Of a stretch of DNA of 64,000 nt, positions 1-62,212 are shown piece after piece. A program made the position numbers and the translations under genes. The DNA lies in NCBI RefSeq assembly GCF_053078305.1, contig NZ_CP166879.1; one strand, written 5' to 3'. Position 1 is the first letter of the stretch, and every line of letters begins with the position of its first letter. Under the pieces are notes generated by a model, which saw nothing but the letters and a program-made list of their open reading frames with translations, had not been told where the DNA came from and did not search any database.

Positions 1-2325
1 CTGATTGGCGGTGTGCCCGCGATCTTTCAGCCATGCGTTCAGGCAGACGCGGGTTGCCCGCAGTGCTTCACCCTCAGGCCAGCCGGTGATACCCAGACGG
101 GTTGCCAGTTCACCCGCCATCGCCACCAGTGCAAAGCGATTCACAGCCCGGCCCACCTGGTTGCCTGCATCTTTCGGAGTCAGGGCGGCAGCATATTCCT
201 TCATCAGCGATTTTGCCTGTGCCGTTAGTCCGTTAAGATCAGCGGTCAGTGCTTTCAGCCACTCCCGGAACGGCGAACCGTAGTAGCAGGACGTGGCCCA
301 TTCAAGATGCTCTGCCAGAGCCTTGCCGCTGTCGAAGCCGTGCAGCTCCTCAAAAACGCCAAACTTCCCGGAATCGCTGGGGATCTGGATCATCCTGACT
401 TCCATCCCGGCAAAAGTACGCTCACCGGCCTTTGCCGCATGTTCGGTCAGAGATAACTCGCCAGTTGAAAAGAACAACAGGCGCCACTGCTTACGGGTAC
501 GCAGCTCACCGTCCGTACCGGCACGACCCTTGCCCTGACCGTTTGCCAGCATGTAGGCGATACTGCCTGCCTCGCGTCCGTCAACTTCCCGGATCTCATC
601 AAGCATCATGGCGGCATCGTTGCGGCGGCTGGCGCATCCCTCCAGCGCGTTGCCGGTGGCCCGCCATGTCTGCCAGTAGTCAGGCCCGCCGCAGACGGAG
701 GTTGCCGCTTTCATGGTGGTGGTCTTACCGTCTGTCGATTCCCCTTTGAGGTGGTAGCCGCCGCCGTCCATACCAACCAGCCGTAACAGTGGTGCAGCAA
801 AGGCCAGGCTGACAGCAAATGCCACGCGGGAGTTGCCGGTACAGTAGCGGGATACGTTCTCCCGCCATTCCTCTGTTGTACCCGACACGCGGAAATCACG
901 CCCCTGCACGGAAGTGGTCTGGAGAATGACACCCTCTGCACCTTCACCGCTGACCTCATCCTGCAGGACGTAAACCTGACCATGCCAGCCAGTACGGCTG
1001 ACGCAGGTCACGCGGCGTTCCGGTTTACACAGTGAGATATATTCCATCAGGCGTGCGCGTGCCTCACCGGTGGTGCTGATATAAGACAGCCCGTTAACCA
1101 GCAGTACCCGGCGCAGTTCCTCACCACTGCCGCTCAGCATTTCCATCGGCATCGCCCAGCGGCGACGCTCACCCCATGTATCTTCCCATTCCAGCAGTCG
1201 TCCGAAGTTACCGCCATCGGCATCGCAGGTGATTGCCGTAACGCGCAGCGGGCTGCATATTTTGACGTTCTGGATCTCCGTCTCACCGTTGCGCTGTACC
1301 TGCTTTTCATACCAGAGATATTCCTGGGTAAGACGGAACCCGTGCGGCAGTTGCGTGCGGCCTTCCCCGCACAGTACCAGACCGTTGCGAAAGACTTCAC
1401 GGGCACGGGTAATACCGTGCTCCCGATGAAAGTCATTCCAGTCAGCCTTAATCTCTCCTGGTGGCAGCGTCATCCAGCCGCCAACAGCTTTTGCCGCCCG
1501 TTCAGCAAAGGCTCTGCCGGGATTCTCCCCCCCGTCCTGAAAATCGTTATCACCGGCGATGATAATTTTTACCTCAGGCCAGCGTGCCCGCAGCGACTGC
1601 GCCACATTGGGCAGGTTGCCCGCAGATATGGCAGCCACTACGCATCCGGCAGTGAGCTGGCTTACCGTCAGCGCCGTAGCGTAACCTTCGGTAATCACCA
1701 CCTGTACCGGTGGTTCAGACGGTAACGGGCTGAGCGACACAAACGCGCCTTTCATCGTGCTGCCGGGCAGTATGCTTTTTTCACCCGTCGGGGCGATAAG
1801 CTGTGCACCGGTCACGGCTCCGGTGTTGGTCGTGAGTGGTAACAGCAGAGAACCGGCAGGAAAATCCTTACCGCTGATATGCTGCACGCTTCCGGTCAGA
1901 GAGGCTGGGTATCCGGCGAACCCTTTTCCTGTCAGATAGGCGCTTTCTCCCGTGTGGCTCTCTTTCATCAGCGCCGCCACGGTAAGACCCATGTCGCGTT
2001 TAGGGGCTTTTTGTCTGGCAGGCTTAACAGGCAGTTCCTGCACATCCGGCACATTAAGCATCTGCGCCACCTCCTGCGCAGCCTTTCTGACGCTGTAACC
2101 GGTTACGAGCTTAACCAGATCCAGACCGTCACCATTGCCACACTGGCTGCAGATCCACGTCCCGCGCCCGTCAAGGTCATCAAGGCGAAAACGATCCTTG
2201 CCCCCACATTTCGGGCAGGGACCGTGCCTGCCGTTTTCAGGTACATCAATACGCAGCATCTGCAGAATAACGGGCCATTTCCCCCGCGCGGCGGCTGAAA
2301 TCTGCGTAACCGTCTGTATTGTCAT
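1..2325 (-). CDS. Replication protein: Zn-ribbon + Toprim primase fused to a P-loop (DUF927-like) helicase. It is truncated at its 3' end by the window edge, with at least 775 codons visible.
   Basis: It is absent from the ORF track because no stop codon lies inside the window. Manual minus-strand translation from ATG 2325 (ATGA overlap with the upstream ORF stop) stays open to position 1. It starts MTIQTVTQISAAARGKWPVILQML. Motifs seen: CPKC...CSQC zinc ribbon (codons 37-62), Toprim-like VVITEGYATA and IIIAGDNDF, Walker A GESTDGKTT, Walker B MMLDEIRE. The family assignment (P4 alpha / PICI Pri-Rep type) is from memory. Confidence 0.85.
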   Translation of the reverse strand, partial: MTIQTVTQISAAARGKWPVILQMLRIDVPENGRHGPCPKCGGKDRFRLDDLDGRGTWICSQCGNGDGLDLVKLVTGYSVRKAAQEVAQMLNVPDVQELPVKPARQKAPKRDMGLTVAALMKESHTGESAYLTGKGFAGYPASLTGSVQHISGKDFPAGSLLLPLTTNTGAVTGAQLIAPTGEKSILPGSTMKGAFVSLSPLPSEPPVQVVITEGYATALTVSQLTAGCVVAAISAGNLPNVAQSLRARWPEVKIIIAGDNDFQDGGENPGRAFAERAAKAVGGWMTLPPGEIKADWNDFHREHGITRAREVFRNGLVLCGEGRTQLPHGFRLTQEYLWYEKQVQRNGETEIQNVKICSPLRVTAITCDADGGNFGRLLEWEDTWGERRRWAMPMEMLSGSGEELRRVLLVNGLSYISTTGEARARLMEYISLCKPERRVTCVSRTGWHGQVYVLQDEVSGEGAEGVILQTTSVQGRDFRVSGTTEEWRENVSRYCTGNSRVAFAVSLAFAAPLLRLVGMDGGGYHLKGESTDGKTTTMKAATSVCGGPDYWQTWRATGNALEGCASRRNDAAMMLDEIREVDGREAGSIAYMLANGQGKGRAGTDGELRTRKQWRLLFFSTGELSLTEHAAKAGERTFAGMEVRMIQIPSDSGKFGVFEELHGFDSGKALAEHLEWATSCYYGSPFREWLKALTADLNGLTAQAKSLMKEYAAALTPKDAGNQVGRAVNRFALVAMAGELATRLGITGWPEGEALRATRVCLNAWLKDRGHTANQ

Positions 2326-2705
2326 ACTTCCCCCTGATACAACGTCACACCGGTACTGCAGAAGTCATCAAAGGCCGCCGGAAGCGTGCGGTACATCTCC
2401 GCCATCACTTCACAGCCGCGCGCGGTCAGTACCGGCGGCGCGGTCAGCAGTGACGGCTCCAGCATGTCAGTCAGCAGTGCCAGCGCGGCAGCGGCGCCCT
2501 GTGCTTCGCCGTACTCGTTAATCAGTGCGCACTCGATATGCAGCGCAATGGCCATTTCAATACGCTCCACCGTCAGGCTGTGCGGACCATACTGATCACT
2601 GCCAGTTTCGTTCAGCATTTTCTGCCGCCATGCTGAAGCAATAGCCCGTCGGTAAAGCGCGGTGGTCATTTCTGCCGGGAAAATGGAAACCTGCGGCTGG
2701 TTCAT
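2322..2705 (-). CDS. Hypothetical island protein (127 aa)
   Basis: An ORF in the track. Its start overlaps the stop of the upstream ORF (ATGA at 2702-2705), and its stop overlaps the primase ATG. No motif recognised. Confidence 0.6.
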   Translation of the reverse strand: MNQPQVSIFPAEMTTALYRRAIASAWRQKMLNETGSDQYGPHSLTVERIEMAIALHIECALINEYGEAQGAAAALALLTDMLEPSLLTAPPVLTARGCEVMAEMYRTLPAAFDDFCSTGVTLYQGEV

Positions 2706-2986
2706 CTGGCACCTCCTTCAATCAGTGCGCAGCTGTGTGCAATATCCGTCAAATCTGCCCGCAGGTACTCCATCAGCGCGGCGACACCAGGCGCACAGCC
2801 TGCGTCCAGTGCTCCGGCCTGAGACGGGTATTCAGAAAAGAGAAGCTGGAGCATGTCGCAGGCATTTCTTGCGCGGATCAGCTTTCCGAAACCGTCCTCT
2901 GACAACCCATAGGCAAAAGCACCGGTATTGTGTTTTTCAGGCAAAGTGTGGCCCTGAGCACCGTTGTGCCCGTTTGAAATATTCAT
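2702..2986 (-). CDS. Hypothetical island protein (94 aa)
   Basis: An ORF in the track. A GGAG lies 9 nt upstream of ATG 2986. It is translationally coupled to the next gene. No motif recognised. Confidence 0.6.
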   Translation of the reverse strand: MNISNGHNGAQGHTLPEKHNTGAFAYGLSEDGFGKLIRARNACDMLQLLFSEYPSQAGALDAGCAPGVAALMEYLRADLTDIAHSCALIEGGAR

Positions 2987-3017
2987 CGTGAATTACTCCG
3001 TTTTCAGCGGTATTTTG

Positions 3018-3377
3018 TCAGAGAAACTTTGAATAGTGACCGTCGTCAGGCTCAGCAGAACGCCGTATGGTACGCTCCCGCCAGCGGATAAATAGCACAG
3101 ACGGATGCAGTGTCAGCGGGCCGGAACCACTACTGCCTGCAGGAGCTGGTGCAGGCTTAAAGAGCGGTACATCAAACAGGCGCGTATACCGCTGTTCAAA
3201 CCATGCCAGAGGGCAGGAAGAAAGCTGGTTGTCGCTGTCATGACGTATCAGCACTTCACAGCTGAATTCAGGATTAACCAGCGCCACAGAGGGCGAGGCT
3301 TCTATTAATCGGATAATCGTGACCGTCCAGCCACGTTCATGCCGCCAGCGTTCGCCGGGGTGCGGATAATTACGCAT
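3018..3377 (-). CDS. Hypothetical island protein (119 aa from MRNYPHPGERW)
   Basis: ATG at 3377 is preceded by GGAGGTGAAC, a strong SD. The ORF-track start at 3407 has no SD. It overlaps the end of the Icd-like gene by 8 nt. Confidence 0.6.
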   Translation of the reverse strand: MRNYPHPGERWRHERGWTVTIIRLIEASPSVALVNPEFSCEVLIRHDSDNQLSSCPLAWFEQRYTRLFDVPLFKPAPAPAGSSGSGPLTLHPSVLFIRWRERTIRRSAEPDDGHYSKFL

Positions 3378-3546
3378 GTTCACCTCCGCAGGGAATGCGC
3401 CCGGCAAAGCTCAGTACACAGTCCGGGGCAAGTCTGCGCCGCGCTGACCGCTCATTATCTGCGGTGAGCCTTAACATCACAGGACGGGCATTGCGTTGAC
3501 TGCGGTTGATCGCCGCAAATAACCAGGTACACTTCTGTTTAGCCAT
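3370..3546 (-). CDS. Small protein (58 aa) resembling host cell division inhibitor Icd-like proteins of P4-type elements
   Basis: MAKQKCTWLFAAINRSQRNARPVMLRLTADNERSARRRLAPDCVLSFAGRIPCGGEHA. ATG 3546 is preceded by GAGGT. This is the C-terminal part of a spurious 244-aa ORF in the track. The Icd-like call is from remembered family sequences, not a search. Confidence 0.55.
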   Translation of the reverse strand: MAKQKCTWLFAAINRSQRNARPVMLRLTADNERSARRRLAPDCVLSFAGRIPCGGEHA

Positions 3547-3575
3547 CTTCGTTACCTCATATAGCGGATTGGTCA

Positions 3576-3610
3576 GAAGCCCGGTTAGTGTTGCTGCACT
3601 GTCGGGCTTC
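3576..3610 (-). other. Stem-loop in the 5' leader of the icd-like/primase operon
   Basis: GAAGCCCG (3576-3583) pairs with CGGGCTTC (3603-3610) around a 19-nt loop. There is no following U-run, so it is not a typical terminator. Confidence 0.4.
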
Positions 3611-3622
3611 GCACTCACAAGG

Positions 3623-3712
3623 TGAATCGCACCTTTAATTTTAAAGCTACCCTTAAGTGAATCGCACTTCAAGCTTTTTATTATCATTTTTTTTGCGTAT
3701 ACTGAATCGCAC
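3623..3712. promoter_or_regulatory. Divergent promoter/operator region with three direct TGAATCGCAC repeats
   Basis: Exact 10-mers at 3623-3632, 3658-3667 and 3703-3712. The third abuts a TATACT -10 candidate (3698-3703) for the plus-strand RHH gene. On the minus strand the repeats overlap candidate -35/-10 elements of the icd-primase operon. Confidence 0.6.
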
Positions 3713-3733
3713 CTAACGCGAGGAGATCCAGTA

Positions 3734-3919
3734 ATGGCAACGAGTTCAACTAACAACAAGTCGCAGCAACTTAATGCTCGTTTCCCACATGATGTAGTTG
3801 CAGAATTAGAAAGCAACCTTGAAGATGGAGAAACGAAAGCGCAATTCATTGTTACTGCTGTAAAAGGCGAGATTAAACGCCGACAGCGCAGGAAAAATAA
3901 GCCAGAGCAAGGAAGTTGA
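3734..3919 (+). CDS. Small ribbon-helix-helix (Arc/MetJ/CopG-like) DNA-binding protein, 61 aa
   Basis: GAGGAG SD 8 nt upstream of the ATG. The pattern is beta-strand LNARFP, helix DVVAELESNL, helix TKAQFIVTAVKGEIKRR, then a basic tail. A bidirectional hairpin follows. The fold call is inferred from the sequence pattern. Confidence 0.6.
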   Translation: MATSSTNNKSQQLNARFPHDVVAELESNLEDGETKAQFIVTAVKGEIKRRQRRKNKPEQGS

Positions 3920-3982
3920 ATAGAGAAGCCAACAGACGTTCTCTCTGGTCCCATGTTAATTTCAGTAAGCGACAATATTTTT

Positions 3983-4016
3983 AAGCCCACAAATTCATTA
4001 TGTCGGGCTTTTTTAT
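3983..4016. terminator. Bidirectional hairpin between the convergent RHH gene and alpA
   Basis: AAGCCC (3983-3988) pairs with GGGCTT (4005-4010). There is a T-run after it on the plus strand and an A-run before it. The loop is long (16 nt), so confidence is moderate. Confidence 0.5.
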
Positions 4017-4030
4017 TAGTGATTTTCATA

Positions 4031-4246
4031 TCACTCACCACGAGAGGCATATATTTGCTCTTGAATCCAGTGATCAACTTCGCTTTCAACGAATGAAATT
4101 GCACGAGTTCCTATTTTCACCGGACGGGGAAATGTATTGTTTGCAAGCTGTTTGTAAAGCCATGCCTTGCTACGCTGAACGCGTCTTAATACCTCTTTTG
4201 CTGAGATAAGAGTCTGATTATCTGAAAAGCTGTTTGCATATTCCAT
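4031..4246 (-). CDS. alpA: AlpA-family (MerR-like HTH, Vis/excisionase-type) phage regulatory protein, 71 aa
   Basis: MEYANSFSDNQTLISAKEVLRRVQRSKAWLYKQLANNTFPRPVKIGTRAISFVESEVDHWIQEQ is the typical AlpA signature (FP.P.K.G.R...W...EV..W). ATG 4246 is preceded by GGAG. The ORF-track start at 4291 is an extension. Confidence 0.85.
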   Translation of the reverse strand: MEYANSFSDNQTLISAKEVLRRVQRSKAWLYKQLANNTFPRPVKIGTRAISFVESEVDHWIQEQIYASRGE

Positions 4247-4530
4247 CTTGTTACTCCGTGTTCTACTTAAGTTCACGGTGACTTTAAACACTGGGAAAAA
4301 GTGATTCTAGTGATAATGGAATCTATTAAGACAAACATTGATTCTATTGAAAAACAATAATCTCCACTGAAAAAAAGAAGTAATATTCATATGAAAGAAC
4401 ACGGAAAGAAGGAAATGCACAAAACAATAAAATTAATAAAATTCATATAGATAGGATGGAAAATCAAAAAATCATACGTCAAAAGGTATTATTACATTTT
4501 AACGATTCATATTACCTAGGAATTAGCACA

Positions 4531-4607
4531 GTATTACACCGTATTACATCGTATTACCCCCTATAGCCCCTTAGAGCCTCTTGTGGCCCTTCTATTGAGA
4601 GATAGCC
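4531..4607. repeat. 10-bp-phased repeat tract: three tandem GTATTACNNN units followed by RGCC motifs on the same 10-bp register
   Basis: GTATTAC at 4531, 4541 and 4551. AGCC/AGCC/GGCC at 4565, 4575 and 4585, with another AGCC at 4604. Degenerate ATTAC copies lie at 4491 and 4511. The tract lies just 3' of the 212-codon ORF and about 290 bp upstream of alpA. Confidence 0.8.
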
Positions 4608-4622
4608 AGAAAATTAATAAAT

Positions 4623-5261
4623 TCACTCTCCGTATTTTATAATGTCTTTCCCCAGCTTTATTTTCTTATAAAACGTAGCTTTTTTAATCCCTTTCATTAG
4701 AATCTCATTCTCATTACAAAAAGAAACAATATCATTATATATAACACTATTATCGCTATAACTTACCTTTCCATGTCTCTTAAGCAATTCAATTAGTAAA
4801 TAAATTAATTTACAACTATAATTATCCTCATCATCTTTTCTGTACTGCCCTCTACCATTACTCCTTAATTTTTTACCAACTTCACATAATTCACTTCCTC
4901 CTAACGTCATTAGAATATCGCTCCAATCTTTATTTTTTACCTGTTGTCGTAATGCGTTCTCAATTCTCTCCTTAATCTCCACAGGTACAATACCTTCCCT
5001 CTGAAAGATATAAGCAGCAGTTAATAATAAGTTCGCCTCCACTTTTTGCGTGGCGGATACGTTTTTATATTCATTAATTAATTGTAGATTTCTGGTTATT
5101 GCCTTTCTTAATCTAATAACCTCTTTTAATTGAACCTCAGTCAATTCATCATTTTCGGTATCATAGTCAAAACCATTCATAGCAAGCGCCACTTCGTGTG
5201 GCGTTATGTAAGTTAACCTATTAAAATAAAACAAATTATTATCAAATTGAGTATTGTTCAT
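4623..5261 (-). CDS. Orphan AT-rich protein of unknown function (212 aa) with a possible C-terminal helix-turn-helix
   Basis: An ORF in the track. GGAGAG lies 8 nt upstream of ATG 5261, which is only 29 nt after the int stop. Hand-counted lines give about 22-35% G+C. No enzymatic motif recognised. The C-terminal GIKKATFYKKIK resembles resolvase/Hin-type HTH recognition segments. Confidence 0.75.
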   Translation of the reverse strand: MNNTQFDNNLFYFNRLTYITPHEVALAMNGFDYDTENDELTEVQLKEVIRLRKAITRNLQLINEYKNVSATQKVEANLLLTAAYIFQREGIVPVEIKERIENALRQQVKNKDWSDILMTLGGSELCEVGKKLRSNGRGQYRKDDEDNYSCKLIYLLIELLKRHGKVSYSDNSVIYNDIVSFCNENEILMKGIKKATFYKKIKLGKDIIKYGE

Positions 5262-5290
5262 TTAAATCTCTCCGCAGCCCCCAATGGTAA

Positions 5291-6553
5291 TTATTTTCCA
5301 TGCATACGCGCAAAATCATATGGTGTGATAGATCCATTCTTATTAGCATCAATATAATCAGCCCACCATTGCAACATTAATCTTCTTTCTTCAAGATATT
5401 CGGAAGTATGCATATATGAACCTTTCACGTTTTTTCGTTCAACGTGGCTTAACTGTCTTTCAATGGCATCATCATTCCATAGTTTCGACTCACTTAGCGC
5501 ACCACGCGCCATAGTTCTAAACCCATGACCACATACTTCAGTTTTCGTATCATATCCCATTACACGTAAGGCGTTATTTACTGTATTTTCACTCATTACT
5601 TTTTTAGGATCATGATCGCTGGGAAATATAACCTCACCTTTACCACTCAAGGCATGTAAACGTTTAAAAATATCAAATGCTTGTTTGCTAAGCGGAACAA
5701 TATGTTCAGTTTTCATCTTCATCCCACGCTCAGAGTGTTTTACGCCGGGAATAGGCTTACGAATTCCGGGTATTGTCCACTCGCTTCGTTCAAAGTTAAC
5801 CTCACTCCAGCGAGCAAAACGCATCTCACTTGAACGTATAAATGTGAGTAGCGTTAATTCAACGGCAAGCCGTGTCATTAGTCGCCCTTTATAGCGTGAT
5901 AGTCTTTCAAGAAGCTCAGGAATTCTTTTTGGGGGTAGTGCTGGGTGGTGGGTTGCTTTAACGCTTAAAAGCGCTCCAGCCATATCGCATGCAGGATTTG
6001 ATTCAAGCAGGTCATTCTGCACACCAAAACGCATAATTGCGGTTACGCGCTGCATCAGTCGCTGCGCGACATCATGTTTACCTGCCGTATCGACAGCTTT
6101 GATTGGATTGAGAAGCTGGCTGGTTCTCAACGTTCTGGCATCGATTTGACCTATCGAGGGGAAAATATACTGCTCAAGTGTCAGCAGAACACGACGGCTA
6201 TGATCTTCGCTCCAAGTAAGGTTACTTGCGTGCCATTGCCTTGCGATAGTTTCAAATAAATATGCCCCCTCAATTTCAGCTTGTGCCCCCTTTTGCTCAG
6301 CTTTGGGGTCAATACCCTGAGACAACAATTTCTTTGCTGCATCGCGCTTACCCCGCGCTTCAGCCAAAGTGACAGTCGGGTATACACCAAAAGCGAGTCG
6401 ATCTTCCTTTTTGTCAGAGGGGCGGCGATATTTCATGCGCCAGTACTTAGAACCTTTAGGGGAGACCTCAAGATACAAGCCGCCTCCATCAGCCATTTTA
6501 TAAGCTTTCTCTTTCGGCTTTGCGGTCTCTATCTGGCGAGCGTTGAGTTTCAT
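5291..6553 (-). CDS. int: P4-type tyrosine integrase (420 aa from MKLNARQIETAKPKEKAYK)
   Basis: The N-terminal Arm-DNA-binding signature (KLNARQIE..AKP..K.Y...DGGGLYL.V...GSK.W...Y) is present, as are the catalytic R (FIRSSE), HGFR and C-terminal Y (GSYMHTSEYL). It is adjacent to the tRNA 3' end. The ORF-track start at 6574 is a 7-codon extension. Confidence 0.92.
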   Translation of the reverse strand: MKLNARQIETAKPKEKAYKMADGGGLYLEVSPKGSKYWRMKYRRPSDKKEDRLAFGVYPTVTLAEARGKRDAAKKLLSQGIDPKAEQKGAQAEIEGAYLFETIARQWHASNLTWSEDHSRRVLLTLEQYIFPSIGQIDARTLRTSQLLNPIKAVDTAGKHDVAQRLMQRVTAIMRFGVQNDLLESNPACDMAGALLSVKATHHPALPPKRIPELLERLSRYKGRLMTRLAVELTLLTFIRSSEMRFARWSEVNFERSEWTIPGIRKPIPGVKHSERGMKMKTEHIVPLSKQAFDIFKRLHALSGKGEVIFPSDHDPKKVMSENTVNNALRVMGYDTKTEVCGHGFRTMARGALSESKLWNDDAIERQLSHVERKNVKGSYMHTSEYLEERRLMLQWWADYIDANKNGSITPYDFARMHGK

Positions 6554-6607
6554 TTTGGGGGCACAAATCCTCATCGAATTGACATGCCCCCGATTATGCC
6601 CCCAAAA
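6553..6607 (-). promoter_or_regulatory. Inverted repeat and GGGGGCA repeats in the int leader
   Basis: TTTTGGGGGCA (6553-6563) is the exact reverse complement of TGCCCCCAAAA (6597-6607). There is an extra TGCCCCC at 6585-6591. The proximal arm ends on the A of the int ATG. Confidence 0.55.
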
Positions 6608-6717
6608 GAGGGTAGACTACAAGAGACCAACAAAGACCATTAGATACCATACTTTACTTGTTTTTTAAGGATTTTTTTGTATTTAGAGACTTCAGGAAAC
6701 GTCAAAAGAAGTGTTAA

Positions 6718-6802
6718 TGGTGCCGAAGGCCGGACTCGAACCGGCACGTATTTCTACGGTTGATTTTGAATCAACTGCGTCTACCGATTTCGCCACTTCG
6801 GC
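6718..6802 (-). tRNA. leuX: tRNA-Leu (anticodon CAA)
   Basis: The reverse complement reads GCCGAAGTGGCGAAATCGGTAGACGCAGTTGATTCAAAATCAACCGTAGAAATACGTGCCGGTTCGAGTCCGGCCTTCGGCACCA. This is a class II tRNA with a long variable arm, a CAA anticodon and an encoded CCA. It is identical to my memory of K-12 leuX. Confidence 0.97.
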
Positions 6803-17253: not shown

Positions 17254-18768
<1,515 letters not shown>

Positions 18769-18769
18769 T

Positions 18770-19092
<323 letters not shown>

Positions 19093-26053: not shown

Positions 26054-27934
26054 TTATGCAGTGATAGTTTTTTTCTTCCAGCCAAATTTTTCTATTGCTA
26101 TACGTAAATTTTCCGGAGGATTTAGTGTATTTAAACGCTGTTGGTCAATAAATGGCGATACATTAACCTCCGATTTCAAGATAGTTTGCATCATTCTAAA
26201 CCTAAGTTTTAATTCATTATTAAGTTTTTCTTCAATAACATCTTTTGGTTGATTTTTCATAATCTCTTCATTAGACTCTTTATTATTAAAATTATACCCT
26301 AACTTATCAAAATAAATCTTTTCATCCTCATAGCTCTTAAGTAACCGAGGGAAGTACCAATTAATCATCTCAGTGTTTTTCATAAAAAAATCATTCATAA
26401 AAATATCATTAACTAAAATACTGACAGGTACTTTATTAAATACTGACTCAACATTATTAAATATTCTTTGTATTAAATATGTTTTTTCTCGATTGCTTAA
26501 GTTAAAATCATTGACATATACAACCAACTTTTTCCAAATCAACTCCTGTAATTCAGGGCTATTTTTATAGGGTTCTTTATCGAGATTGAAAAATAATGTC
26601 TCAGCTACTTTAGACTGATCGCGACGAAAATTAATATGATTTATTACGGAGCATGCATGCTCTATCTTTGCAGAATCATCAAAATATTGCATGCTTTTAT
26701 TAAAACACCACTCCAGTATTTTTACATCATTATTATATGGCAATTCTAAAAAAGTCATCAACATCGAATGGATGACCGGTGTAAGATTAACCTTTGCATC
26801 ATCTAAGGATTCAATAAGAATATGAGACAGGTTAATCATGATGTCATTAATTTCATTGTTACCTTCTTTGTCATTATCAATTCCGTGATCATTTAATTCG
26901 TAGAGCTTATCTATTTCTTCAAGTATACCATTTTCGCCCAGTAAGTATGAAATCGATTCACTACATACATGAGGCATTAATAGCAGATGTTCGTTCCTTA
27001 TTGCTAATAATGCATTATTCAATGATTTTTCTAATAAATCCGTAATCGTAGAATCAACTGAACCTTTACAACTCACCTGCGAATTATTTAAGTCCTGCGA
27101 GTTATTTAACTCCTGCGAATCATTTAACTCCTGTGGATTATTTAACTCCTGTGGATTATTTAACTCCTGCGAATTATTTAACTCCTGCGAATTATTTAAC
27201 TTCTGAGAATTATTTAACTCCTGTATATTATTTAACTCCTGTATATTATTTAACTTCTGTAGGTTATTTAACTTCTGTAGATTATTTAACTTCTGTAGAT
27301 TATTTAACTTCTGTAGATTATTTAACTTCTGTAGATTATTTAACTTCTGTAGATTATTTAACTTCTGATGATTATTTAATAGACGCGCTATTTCCTTGTT
27401 AGCTTCGCGTTGGTAACACGCCAGAACCTTGTTAGTAATCAGGTGTAATGAACTATCATCTTTTCTTTCAAAAGACTTCCCTTCATAACGATTAGTCGAA
27501 CCATCAGATTGTTTAAATATAATGACTGTATGTCCTTCACGAATCCCTTCAGTAGAAGCTGAGGCAAGTGTAATTTCTATCTTCACCTTAGATAAATCCG
27601 CTCGCTCCCCTTCAGGATTATTCATGTAAAACTTCATTTTTTCATTGCCATCAGTATCTTTAGAATAAGATGAGGACTCAATATGAGTCATCATATTTCT
27701 ACCCGCTTCGTTGGAGCGTTTGCTAAAATCCACATAACCCAGGGTAAATATCTTTGCCAAAAACTCCAAAAATGCTCTAGGAGAAAGAATATTGCTTCTG
27801 CTATTCTGCCTCCCGGCAATTCGGGCAAAATCATTCATTCCCACATACCAGGTATCTAAGGCTTCACTTTTTTGTTTAAAATTGTCGGCTAATGTAATGT
27901 GTTGAGAATAATTCAAATCTGATATTTTGCTCAT
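26054..27934 (-). CDS. yjgL: Uncharacterised AT-rich protein with an internal hexapeptide (LNNxQx) repeat array, 626 aa
   Basis: MSKISDLNYSQHITLADNFKQKSEALDTWYVGMNDFARIAG. It matches YjgL in sequence and in its position between argI and tabA. No known domain recognised. Confidence 0.9.
   Translation of the reverse strand: MSKISDLNYSQHITLADNFKQKSEALDTWYVGMNDFARIAGRQNSRSNILSPRAFLEFLAKIFTLGYVDFSKRSNEAGRNMMTHIESSSYSKDTDGNEKMKFYMNNPEGERADLSKVKIEITLASASTEGIREGHTVIIFKQSDGSTNRYEGKSFERKDDSSLHLITNKVLACYQREANKEIARLLNNHQKLNNLQKLNNLQKLNNLQKLNNLQKLNNLQKLNNLQKLNNIQELNNIQELNNSQKLNNSQELNNSQELNNPQELNNPQELNDSQELNNSQDLNNSQVSCKGSVDSTITDLLEKSLNNALLAIRNEHLLLMPHVCSESISYLLGENGILEEIDKLYELNDHGIDNDKEGNNEINDIMINLSHILIESLDDAKVNLTPVIHSMLMTFLELPYNNDVKILEWCFNKSMQYFDDSAKIEHACSVINHINFRRDQSKVAETLFFNLDKEPYKNSPELQELIWKKLVVYVNDFNLSNREKTYLIQRIFNNVESVFNKVPVSILVNDIFMNDFFMKNTEMINWYFPRLLKSYEDEKIYFDKLGYNFNNKESNEEIMKNQPKDVIEEKLNNELKLRFRMMQTILKSEVNVSPFIDQQRLNTLNPPENLRIAIEKFGWKKKTITA
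27074..27379. repeat. 17 x 18-bp in-frame tandem repeat inside yjgL
   Basis: The unit is TTATTTAACTYCTGNRNA on the plus strand. Five consecutive identical copies of CTTCTGTAGATTATTTAA, plus one 1-nt variant, lie at the 27.25-27.36 kb end. The array encodes LNNHQK, (LNNLQK)x6, LNNIQE x2, LNNSQK, LNNSQE x2, LNNPQE x2, LNDSQE, LNNSQD, LNNSQV. Confidence 0.95.
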
Positions 27935-35745: not shown

Positions 35746-36008
35746 AAGGAGTCCCTCCGCACTGTCTGAAACAGTACAGAAATGTCTTCAGGCGTGGCGA
35801 AGCCTTACCTGAAGGTAATAAAGCTGAGCAGGGACGTTAAAACGTCACGGCCTTACGCATCCGGTAACGCCGTGAAAAGACGGGCTTACCGGAAAAGTTT
35901 TAATCTCCGTCGAGGGAGAGGCGTGGGATCAGGTTCCATATAACCTCCGGTAAGTGAAAAAAGCGCCGCAAATAATAAGGAGAATCCAATAATATTCGTA
36001 GCATCTAT
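35746..36008 (-). promoter_or_regulatory. mgtA 5' leader (Mg2+- and proline-responsive attenuation region)
   Basis: A roughly 263-nt untranslated leader lies between the inferred PhoP-dependent start and the mgtA ATG and contains mgtL. Function is from established E. coli/Salmonella work. The start site is inferred from the -10 position. Confidence 0.75.
35886..35939 (-). CDS. mgtL: mgtA leader peptide (17 aa, proline-rich)
   Basis: [17 protein letters not shown]. These are the last 17 codons of an 88-aa ORF in the track. Confidence 0.88.
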
Positions 36009-42863: not shown

Positions 42864-43025
<162 letters not shown>

Positions 43026-46140: not shown

Positions 46141-46245
46141 TGCCGGATGCGGTGCACCTGTAGGCCTGATAAGACGCATCAAGCGTCGCATCAGGCACTA
46201 TGCTCAAATGCCGGATGCGGCGTGAACGCCTTATCCGGCCTACGC
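46141..46245. repeat. BIME / REP pair
   Basis: TGCCGGATGCGGTGCACCTGTAGGCCTGATAAGACGCATCAAGCGTCGCATCAGGC ... GCCGGATGCGGCGTGAACGCCTTATCCGGCCTAC. Confidence 0.88.
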
Positions 46246-52399: not shown

Positions 52400-52485
52400 G
52401 TAGGCATGATAAGACGCGGTAAGCGTCGCATCAGGCTTCAGTGCACCATCGCCGGATGCGGCGCGAGCGCCTTATCCGGCCTACG
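52400..52485. repeat. BIME / REP pair
   Basis: TAGGCATGATAAGACGCGGTAAGCGTCGCATCAGGC ... GCCGGATGCGGCGCGAGCGCCTTATCCGGCCTAC. Confidence 0.88.
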
Positions 52486-61936: not shown

Positions 61937-62035
61937 TGCCGGATGCGGCGTAAACGCCTTGCCAGGCCTACAAAATCGTCCAAATTCAATATATTGCAAG
62001 GACTGCGTAGGCCTGATCGGCATAGCGCATCAGGC
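61937..62035. repeat. REP elements
   Basis: TGCCGGATGCGGCGTAAACGCCTTGCCAGGCCTAC ... TAGGCCTGATCGGCATAGCGCATCAGGC. Confidence 0.85.
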
Positions 62036-62212
62036 AGTTTTGCATTTTTCAGCTGTCTGAATTTTAACCCTCTGGCGGCTTTACAGTACCTTACGCTATA
62101 CTAGCCACTGAAAATGCCGGTTCACTTTCTTCGAATCGGCTTTCAATGTGTATTTCACACAAATTAATCAACTTCCCCTTCCGAGGATCTGGCCTGAAAG
62201 GTCGGATAAGAT

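Follow-up and report, generated by a model that had tools for sequence, protein, structure and literature searches.

What occupies the leuX locus of this genome, and to what kind of mobile element does it belong? The window examined here is a stretch of 64,000 nt from contig NZ_CP166879.1 (RefSeq assembly GCF_053078305.1), and its positions 1-6802 were analysed for the element inserted at leuX, whose genes could be read up to position 1, inside the primase gene. We consider it probable, at roughly 85%, that these 6,802 nt are the integrase-proximal half of a P4-like satellite, about 12.7 kb long, that is integrated in the 3′ end of leuX, a judgement drawn from homology. A previous reading made from the letters alone (the sequence-only reading) had recognised an intact tRNA-Leu(CAA) followed 164 nt further on by an integrase gene, and then alpA, an Icd-like gene and a Zn-ribbon/Toprim/P-loop replication protein. 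It had proposed that an int-alpA-primase element unlike the K-12 arrangement fills the site and continues past position 1. These claims held up when the locus was analysed with database searches and compared with its relatives: the genes are where they had been placed, alpha is open at the window edge, and the corresponding element of the E. coli genome EC20 continues beyond it.

The integration module and the P4 homologues

The features of the window that carry this interpretation are the following.

6718-6802, minus strand: leuX, tRNA-Leu(CAA), intact with encoded CCA (ARAGORN; Rfam tRNA, 59.4 bits)
6718-6737: att core TGGTGCCGAAGGCCGGACTC, the last 20 nt of leuX, identical to the 20-nt attP core of P4 (P4 record 4078-4097)
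6555-6605: three P4-type arm repeats, TTGGGGGCACAA (6555-6566), ACATGCCCCCGA (6582-6593) and TTATGCCCCCAA (6594-6605)
5291-6553, minus strand: tyrosine integrase of P4 Int type, 420 amino acids (aa), full length (Pfam Arm-DNA-bind_3, Phage_int_M, Phage_integrase)
4031-4246, minus strand: AlpA-family helix-turn-helix (HTH) protein (PF05930, E = 9e-12)
3370-3546, minus strand: Icd-like gene, 58 aa (NF033153, E = 4.7e-23)
2322-2705, minus strand: DUF5375 protein (PF17345, E = 1.7e-13)
1-2325, minus strand: alpha-like primase-helicase, first 775 codons, open at the window edge (Zn_Ribbon_Prim, Toprim_3 and DUF927, the last at E = 4.5e-91)

A single tRNA, tRNA-Leu(CAA), was found by ARAGORN within the first 12 kb of the window, and leuX is the integration target and the attL side of the element. 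The other flank of leuX holds ahr, idnK and idnD, the E. coli leuX neighbourhood. K-12 shares the tRNA and the flanking idnD, idnK and ahr with the window, but its leuX remnant (KpLE2, or PR-Y) consists of an intB pseudogene followed by IS2 and other genes, without alpA, primase or hijack genes, and is in all these respects unlike the element described here.

With P4 Int the integrase shares 72% identity over 410 aa without gaps, and with the leuX-linked Int of Erwinia tracheiphila 97.6%. Between its ATG at 6553 and the 3′ end of the tRNA lie 164 nt (6554-6717), and the three arm repeats in this interval align with the 'attP arm sequence repeats' annotated at 3915-3926, 3942-3953 and 3954-3965 of P4, which makes them the presumed arm-binding sites of Int. 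An inverted repeat was also detected by repeat search in the arm-repeat region. P4 (NC_001609) likewise integrates at the 3′ end of leuX, with the identical 20-nt core and the same arm repeats in both arms.

Homology to P4 extends into the replication region. The N-terminal 316 aa of alpha are 38% identical to P4 alpha, and the protein carries a Walker-A-like motif, GESTDGKTT. Its helicase half is of another kind, in that the alpha proteins of P4 and of an O157 element have a helicase of D5_N, DUF5906 and Pox_D5 type in place of DUF927. The DUF927 half matches the Protein Data Bank (PDB) entries 8tch ('Pathogenicity island protein', E = 1.4e-15) and 5dgk ('Active helicase'), both names being those given by the depositors; the latter we take to be the Cch helicase of SCCmec. 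The DUF5375 protein, with 40% identity, is the counterpart of P4 orf106, and the Icd-like protein matches the C-terminal part of the P4 'cI' open reading frame (ORF) with 52% identity to residues 86-131. AlpA, 25% identical to P4 orf88 (E = 2e-7), is the counterpart of orf88/Vis and presumably acts as an excisionase or a transcriptional regulator. From leuX, the gene order on the minus strand is int, a 212-aa gene, alpA, the Icd-like gene, a 119-aa ORF, a 94-aa ORF, the DUF5375 gene and the primase-helicase gene. Chance is ruled out as the source of these features by their E-values and by the conserved att core and arm repeats.

The rest of the element in EC20 and other relatives

The EC20 locus (L001 below, where window position equals L001 position minus 20000) differs from the window by 9 single-nucleotide polymorphisms over 6,802 nt and is thus 99.9% identical. 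Of 5,426 complete E. coli genomes, 201 carry at least 80% of the 6.8-kb stretch, and the best-matching genomes are mostly isolates of sequence type ST361. Past position 1, the EC20 order is the rest of alpha (full length, 890 aa), a 400-bp spacer, Sid, Psu, an Ogr/delta protein of 90 aa, a spacer of 315 bp, an AAA ATPase and its 280-aa partner, and att. The hijack genes read there are these.

L001 18508-19251: Sid, 24% identical to P4 Sid (E = 5e-13; PF07455, E = 1.7e-9)
L001 17960-18511: Psu (PF07455, E = 8e-44), 29% identical to P4 Psu
L001 17682-17954: delta of Ogr type (PF04606, Ogr_Delta, E = 7e-16), 45% identical to P4 delta over the zinc finger, a single Ogr unit as against the 166 aa of P4 delta

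A span of 180 bp between alpha and sid contains six exact GTTCCACC iterons, whereas the whole 46.8-kb locus would be expected to have 0.9. They resemble the octamer TGTTCACC, the complement of GGTGAACA, which was read at P4 9400-9413; there, just upstream of P4 sid, 'ori type 1' repeats are annotated in the P4 record. The EC20 sid is preceded, about 40 nt upstream, by TGTGTCAGCCACGACACA, and P4 sid by TGTGTCAGGGCTGGCACA, two instances of one TGT-N12-ACA motif, which we take to be the Ogr/delta-responsive motif of P2 and P4 late promoters.

Downstream of delta a cos-like block, AGCGAGGCGGGCAGGCGTGCGGGG, was spotted by eye; a match to a Peduoviridae phage then supported it. The block contains GCGAGGCGGG; the cos of P4 is GGCGAGGCGGGGAAAGCAC, so that the two cores differ, and the exact 19-mer of P4/P2 cos was absent from the EC20 locus with up to 3 mismatches allowed. 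The 150-nt block matches phage 500465-1 between its replication genes and its portal gene, with the 18-nt core and three further blocks identical. The cos site and the defence hotspot of P2-like phages lie in that same place, between replication genes and portal gene (PMC9122126). In about 800 E. coli genomes the block is conserved to 90% or more, and its conservation ends exactly at the cargo boundary, on the cargo side, which is the picture described for the P4 hotspot. Similar ori octamers and TGT-N12-ACA before sid are common to P4 and this element, and the cos-like block, putatively a cos of the P2 family, is followed by an accessory slot as the cos of P4 is.

The far end of EC20 holds an exact 18-nt copy of the leuX 3′ end (L001 14000-14017), 12.7 kb from the tRNA, which provides the second att repeat that the sequence-only reading had proposed to look for. 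It is followed by AATGCCCCTTTTTGTGCCCCCA, aligning with two annotated P′-arm repeats of P4 (P4 4151-4174). To judge from these alignments the integration module is that of P4 with both arms complete, the distal arm having been read in EC20. The distal att as a whole (L001 13982-14017) reads ATGGTGC-GAAGGTGCGAAGGTGCGAAGGCCGGACTCGAAC, one C fewer than the core of P4 and leuX, and contains the 8-nt unit GTGCGAAG three times, that is, with two extra units.

The sequence-only reading had further placed morphogenesis or interference genes and defence cargo upstream of the window, and through relatives this is borne out by the sid, psu, ogr/delta, cos-like block and candidate defence system PDC-M38 of EC20. 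Of the gene sets it had named, the sid/psu/delta type with a cos-like site was found and the terS type was not: no terS-, Rpp- or Ppi-type gene was seen, and the 15 genes of the EC20 copy gave no Pfam match to terS or capsid-morphogenesis families. Nor did the EC20 copy give a Pfam or PHROG match to packaging-redirection or small-terminase proteins, three small ORFs and the 212-aa gene being without family. For the source genome we would predict, upstream of position 1, a further 115 codons of alpha, GTTCCACC iterons, sid(-psu)-delta, the cos core GCGGGCAGGCGTGCGGGG and a cargo slot, and at the far end, after the slot, CGAAGGCCGGACTCGAAC and then ATGCCCC(T/C)TTTTGTGCCCCCA.

These parts suggest how the element might work. 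By homology to P4, Int would recombine the 20-nt core, rebuilding the tRNA and using the arm repeats on both sides, and AlpA may help excision or activate the early operon. The alpha-like primase-helicase would replicate the excised circle from the iteron origin just beyond the window, and the Ogr/delta activator would cross-activate late genes. Sid (and Psu) would make a P2-like helper build small capsids, into which the putative P2-family cos site would let the helper terminase package the satellite, and the slot next to cos would carry an exchangeable anti-phage system.

In at least 322 of the 5,426 complete E. coli genomes alpha with DUF927 is directly followed by sid-psu-delta. The same collinear core, with alpha 96-100% identical as protein, occurs in Shigella flexneri, Enterobacter soli, E. 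intestinihominis, Pseudocitrobacter, two Citrobacter species and Pantoea stewartii, and the E. intestinihominis copy has the same int, the 212-aa gene and PDC-M38 as well. Beside the copies from outside E. coli the tRNA, if one was detected, was tRNA-Arg(CCT) or tRNA-Thr(CGT); E. coli and Erwinia copies with the leuX-type integrase are at tRNA-Leu(CAA). In most of the relatives from other species, and in a single E. coli copy, psu is lacking and sid is directly followed by delta (L010, L012-L017), although the replication core of these copies is 96-100% identical as protein. Some copies are interrupted by IS1 or IS903. Between the window and EC20 the island has diverged by 0.13% and the flank by about 1.5%; this low divergence and the spread over genera indicate recent horizontal transfer. 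The deposited phage records of INPHARED held no close relative of the element or of its alpha.

Immunity region, accessory genes and cargo slot

Further features of the window lie between int and the replication protein.

4623-5261, minus strand: slot-1 accessory gene, 212 aa, 31% GC (phrog_30524 only)
4531-4560: three GTATTAC repeats with 10-nt spacing, between the 212-aa gene and alpA (repeat search, family D4)
3734-3919, plus strand: YlcI/YnfO-family gene, 61 aa (NF041551, E = 2.8e-18; phrog_949)
3623-3714: three 12-nt repeats TGAATCGCAC(C/T)T, at 3623, 3658 and 3703 (repeat search, family D1)
3585-3607: module junction (drop in GC and divergence of relatives)
3018-3377, minus strand: 119-aa ORF (phrog_30862, E = 2e-76)
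2702-2986, minus strand: 94-aa ORF (phrog_14861)

The YlcI/YnfO gene is the sole plus-strand gene and stands at the place of the Ash/CI immunity region of P4-type elements. The 12-nt repeats (TGAATCGCACCT sites), two of the three palindromic (AAGGTG-N5-CACCTT), sit in the divergent region between the starts of this gene and the Icd-like gene, and appear operator-like, although a function as operators is something we infer. In the elements of P4, O157 and Erwinia the Phage_ASH family (PF10554) was scored, fused there to the Icd-like part; here the 58-aa Icd-like part stands alone. The 119-aa ORF is a weak counterpart of P4 orf151 (25% identity, E = 2e-4), and the 94-aa ORF gave no BLASTP alignment with P4 epsilon and no match to PF25738. 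Folding of the 3540-3740 leader gave z = -1.9, unconvincing as a CI RNA, and a scan for promoters and terminators returned counts at shuffle level and was uninformative. A symR-like Rfam match at 3541-3613 (plus strand) reaches 26 bits against a gathering score of 61; the match overlaps a GC-rich hairpin of 8 bp, GAAGCCCG...CGGGCTTC, which the Icd-like gene has in its leader at the module junction.

Relatives with other integrases match the window from position 1 to 3585/3607 at about 98.4% and are divergent beyond, and at this point the GC content drops from 55-60% to 30-41%. The block from int through slot 1 and alpA to YlcI is therefore a separate module. Within it, the 212-aa protein had no match in Pfam, NCBIfam or PADLOC, and its 23 homologue clusters all come from Enterobacterales and consist of unnamed proteins. 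The gene adjoins the same int at the same position in Erwinia (65% identity) and in Enterobacter intestinihominis (92%). In E. tracheiphila (L006 6692-8642) identity drops from 97.6% for Int to 65% for its neighbour exactly at the gene boundary, which points to fast evolution or recombination of the 212-aa gene. Its AlphaFold2 (AF2) model has a pLDDT of 66.6 and found no meaningful fold match, and the best hit of a profile search against PDB had E = 0.015; an impression of a C-terminal HTH was unsupported and was dropped. Relatives with other integrases carry unrelated low-GC proteins of 274-324 aa in slot 1, which had no Pfam or PADLOC match and of which only the two argW-type ones are related to each other (25% identity). 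The 212-aa gene could thus be a regulator travelling with int, or slot 1 could be a second accessory slot.

Exchange of cargo makes the slot next to cos a genuine hotspot. In EC20 the slot holds, adjacent and at full length, both components of the PADLOC candidate defence system PDC-M38.

L001 15130-17367, outside the window: PDC-M38 component, E = 0
L001 14283-15125, outside the window: PDC-M38 component, E = 1.2e-138

The ATPase of the system is AAA_21/AAA_15 and shows weaker similarity to AbiLi and AriA (AbiL-like). This cargo was present in 34 genomes only, compared with the 201 that carry the window half of the element, and a literature search found no paper mentioning PDC-M38. The 98.6%-identical leuX copy of WCHEC005784 has retron St85 in the same slot, and other relatives have a DzbB-like protein, or a portal-like protein with a partner. 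The last pair, a 351-aa Phage_portal protein (E = 8.5e-17) and a 120-aa protein, lies at 6224-7645 of L010, the argW copy of E. coli isolate 12; a portal-like gene is an unusual cargo for a satellite without other structural genes.

Some observations concern the surroundings. Past the distal att of EC20, the interval between the satellite and nanS (L001 12563-13499) contains a gene for an HNH endonuclease and a restriction-endonuclease pseudogene that is truncated, both probably left behind by an earlier leuX occupant, and at the equivalent place WCHEC005784 has a frameshifted second integrase (L018 2542-3680). On the chromosomal side, collinearity of EC20 with the window is lost after about 26.1 kb, just past argF, where identity falls to 81%; the 626-aa minus-strand ORF at this break (window 26124-26293 and 26054-27934) marks a variable spot of the chromosome unrelated to the element. 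Elsewhere in the window, Rfam matches at gathering level are ordinary for E. coli: Ysr276, several naRNA4 (REP-type), a Magnesium-II (magnesium-responsive) riboswitch, STnc450 and ES036, located at 17815-18009, 18843-19014, 35839-35954, 42864-42934, 46163-46240, 52403-52481 and 61972-62151.

Classification, alternatives and significance

A number of points weigh against the satellite interpretation. The window ends inside alpha, and the sid, psu, delta, cos and second att of this genome are supplied by relatives, the source genome itself being absent, at 99% or better, from the collections that were searched; the slot differs among those relatives, and its content in the source genome cannot be deduced from them with confidence. 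Neither epsilon (PF25738) nor Phage_ASH was detected in any ORF between alpA and alpha, and derepression by a helper along the P4 route is therefore unsupported. A CI RNA was sought by an Rfam E-value scan of the whole element, which returned the tRNA and the sub-threshold symR-like match only. The EC20 genome has no second cos-like copy, and thus no resident helper with a similar cos was detected, and about 21 of the 5,426 E. coli genomes, possibly helpers, have cos-block matches in the 60-80% band. Finally, the 1-nt deletion and extra 8-nt units of the EC20 distal core could impair excision. If the roughly 21 genomes of the 60-80% band are helpers, they are far fewer than the satellites with this cos type, which occur in about 840 genomes.

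Part of this would fit a decayed, immobile P4-like remnant, a cryptic island kept for cargo useful to the host and no longer excised or packaged. The missing epsilon or Ash module, the irregular distal att of EC20 and the lack of a helper-like cos elsewhere in that genome all point in this direction, as do the copies with IS1 or IS903 insertions and the degraded second integrase past the element in WCHEC005784, by which the locus is seen to accumulate remnants. Yet every ORF of the window is open and alpha is full length in EC20, so that the disruption of int or primase which the sequence-only reading had named as the mark of a remnant was not seen. Both sets of arm repeats, the iterons, the late promoter motif and the cos block are conserved, and the island is about 10 times less diverged than its flank. 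A near-identical core in at least six genera and at three tRNA sites, with swapped int and cargo modules, is what is expected of an active element, and we regard decay as an unlikely explanation. For the P4-like satellite that we prefer, gene content, anatomy of att and arms, homologies and distribution are read from sequence; excision, replication and helper dependence, and any roles of YlcI and the 212-aa gene, are inferred.

The gene order of this satellite differs from that of P4. P4 is arranged as int, gop/beta/cII, cos, psu-delta-sid (divergent), orf88...alpha and att; the present element runs int, slot 1, alpA...alpha, ori, sid-psu-delta, cos, slot 2 and att, on one strand save for YlcI/YnfO. 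The two share homologous Int, orf88/AlpA, Icd-like C-terminus, orf106 (DUF5375), primase N-terminus, Sid, Psu and delta, and differ in the helicase domain, in delta, in the cos core, and in that the epsilon and Phage_ASH/CI region of P4 is replaced by the YlcI/YnfO gene and the three repeats. A P4-like element of classical order in E. coli O157:H7 (L005, strain 350) combines these traits differently. Its delta-psu-sid DNA is 92% identical to the EC20 type and its cos-like block about 90%, but it has the P4 order with a divergent hijack operon, a P4-type alpha (D5_N/Pox_D5), a Phage_ASH and Icd ORF, a different integrase, and an ABC-three-component system as cargo.

The text of PMC8628076 defines P4-like satellites through seven markers and admits those with one missing as 'Type B'. 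Six of the seven were found here (int, AlpA, alpha, and, as read in EC20, sid, psu and delta), and epsilon/Ash was absent. The P4 gene order, which according to that text is typical of the family and is not required by the detection rule, was likewise absent. In the same text 77% of elements follow the P4 order, psu and delta have changed places in 20%, alpA comes after alpha in 1.2% and int is next to alpha in fewer than 1%; an order int-alpA-alpha-sid-psu-delta is not described there. Variants without psu have been reported, and a cos-adjacent defence hotspot with rapid swapping of cargo is established (PMC9122126, PMC13586616). The size of about 12.7 kb, the tRNA integration and the hotspot found here agree with the catalogued satellites (Moura de Sousa & Rocha 2021, PMC8628076; SatelliteFinder 2023, PMC10085698; Rousset et al. 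2022, PMC9122126; Moura de Sousa et al. 2026, PMC13586616). A literature search for 'DUF927' with 'P4-like' found no papers. On its gene content the element would be a P4-like satellite of a non-canonical, rearranged sub-lineage, neither a phage-inducible chromosomal island (PICI) nor a CP4-57-type island.

A more specific version of this view can be offered tentatively; we think it possible but doubtful that the element represents a distinct hybrid satellite lineage, not explicitly described so far. Such a lineage would join P4 integration and a P4 capsid-hijack kit to a DUF927 helicase of the pathogenicity-island/SCCmec kind. YlcI/YnfO with three operators would be a protein immunity switch replacing CI RNA/Ash, and the variable low-GC gene next to int would sense helpers as a regulator or form a second defence slot. 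As helpers the lineage would use rare Peduoviridae with a different cos core, rather than P2.

The sequence-only reading had likened the gene order to CP4-57 and PICIs more than to P4. The order is indeed not that of P4, and the DUF927 half does lean the other way, but the overall likeness to CP4-57 or a PICI did not stand, the parts being of P4 type. A Gram-negative PICI or CP4-57-type island, mobilised by a lambdoid helper with HK97-type capsid through induction by AlpA and a protein that redirects packaging, is highly improbable and was rejected on gene content: the one-strand order int, accessory gene, alpA, pri-rep, as in the EcCICFT073 type, and the matches to 8tch and 5dgk would suit it, but the near-identical copies carry sid, psu, ogr/delta and a putative P2-family cos, the EC20 copy gave no Pfam match to terS or capsid-morphogenesis genes, the int and att module is P4's, and the DUF5375 protein, Icd-like gene and primase N-terminus are P4 homologues.

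Here, a strain-specific insertion at a classic integration hotspot is explained as a P4-type satellite. Nothing in it overturns current understanding; the element is of a known and heavily catalogued kind, and the details of its sub-lineage are mildly interesting. Int/att module, helicase, immunity region, hijack operon and cargo have separate histories, which speaks for reshuffling of modules. P4-type satellites, which take over the capsids of P2-like phages, are major carriers of exchangeable anti-phage systems, and in relatives that share the core the cargo is PDC-M38, retron St85 or something else. In the present arrangement the integrase is at the other end and none lies downstream of psu, so that extraction of the stretch from psu to int, as in PMC9122126, would probably pass over the slot next to cos. 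With the arrangement in at least 322 complete E. coli genomes, surveys of defence systems made in this way may undercount what these satellites carry.

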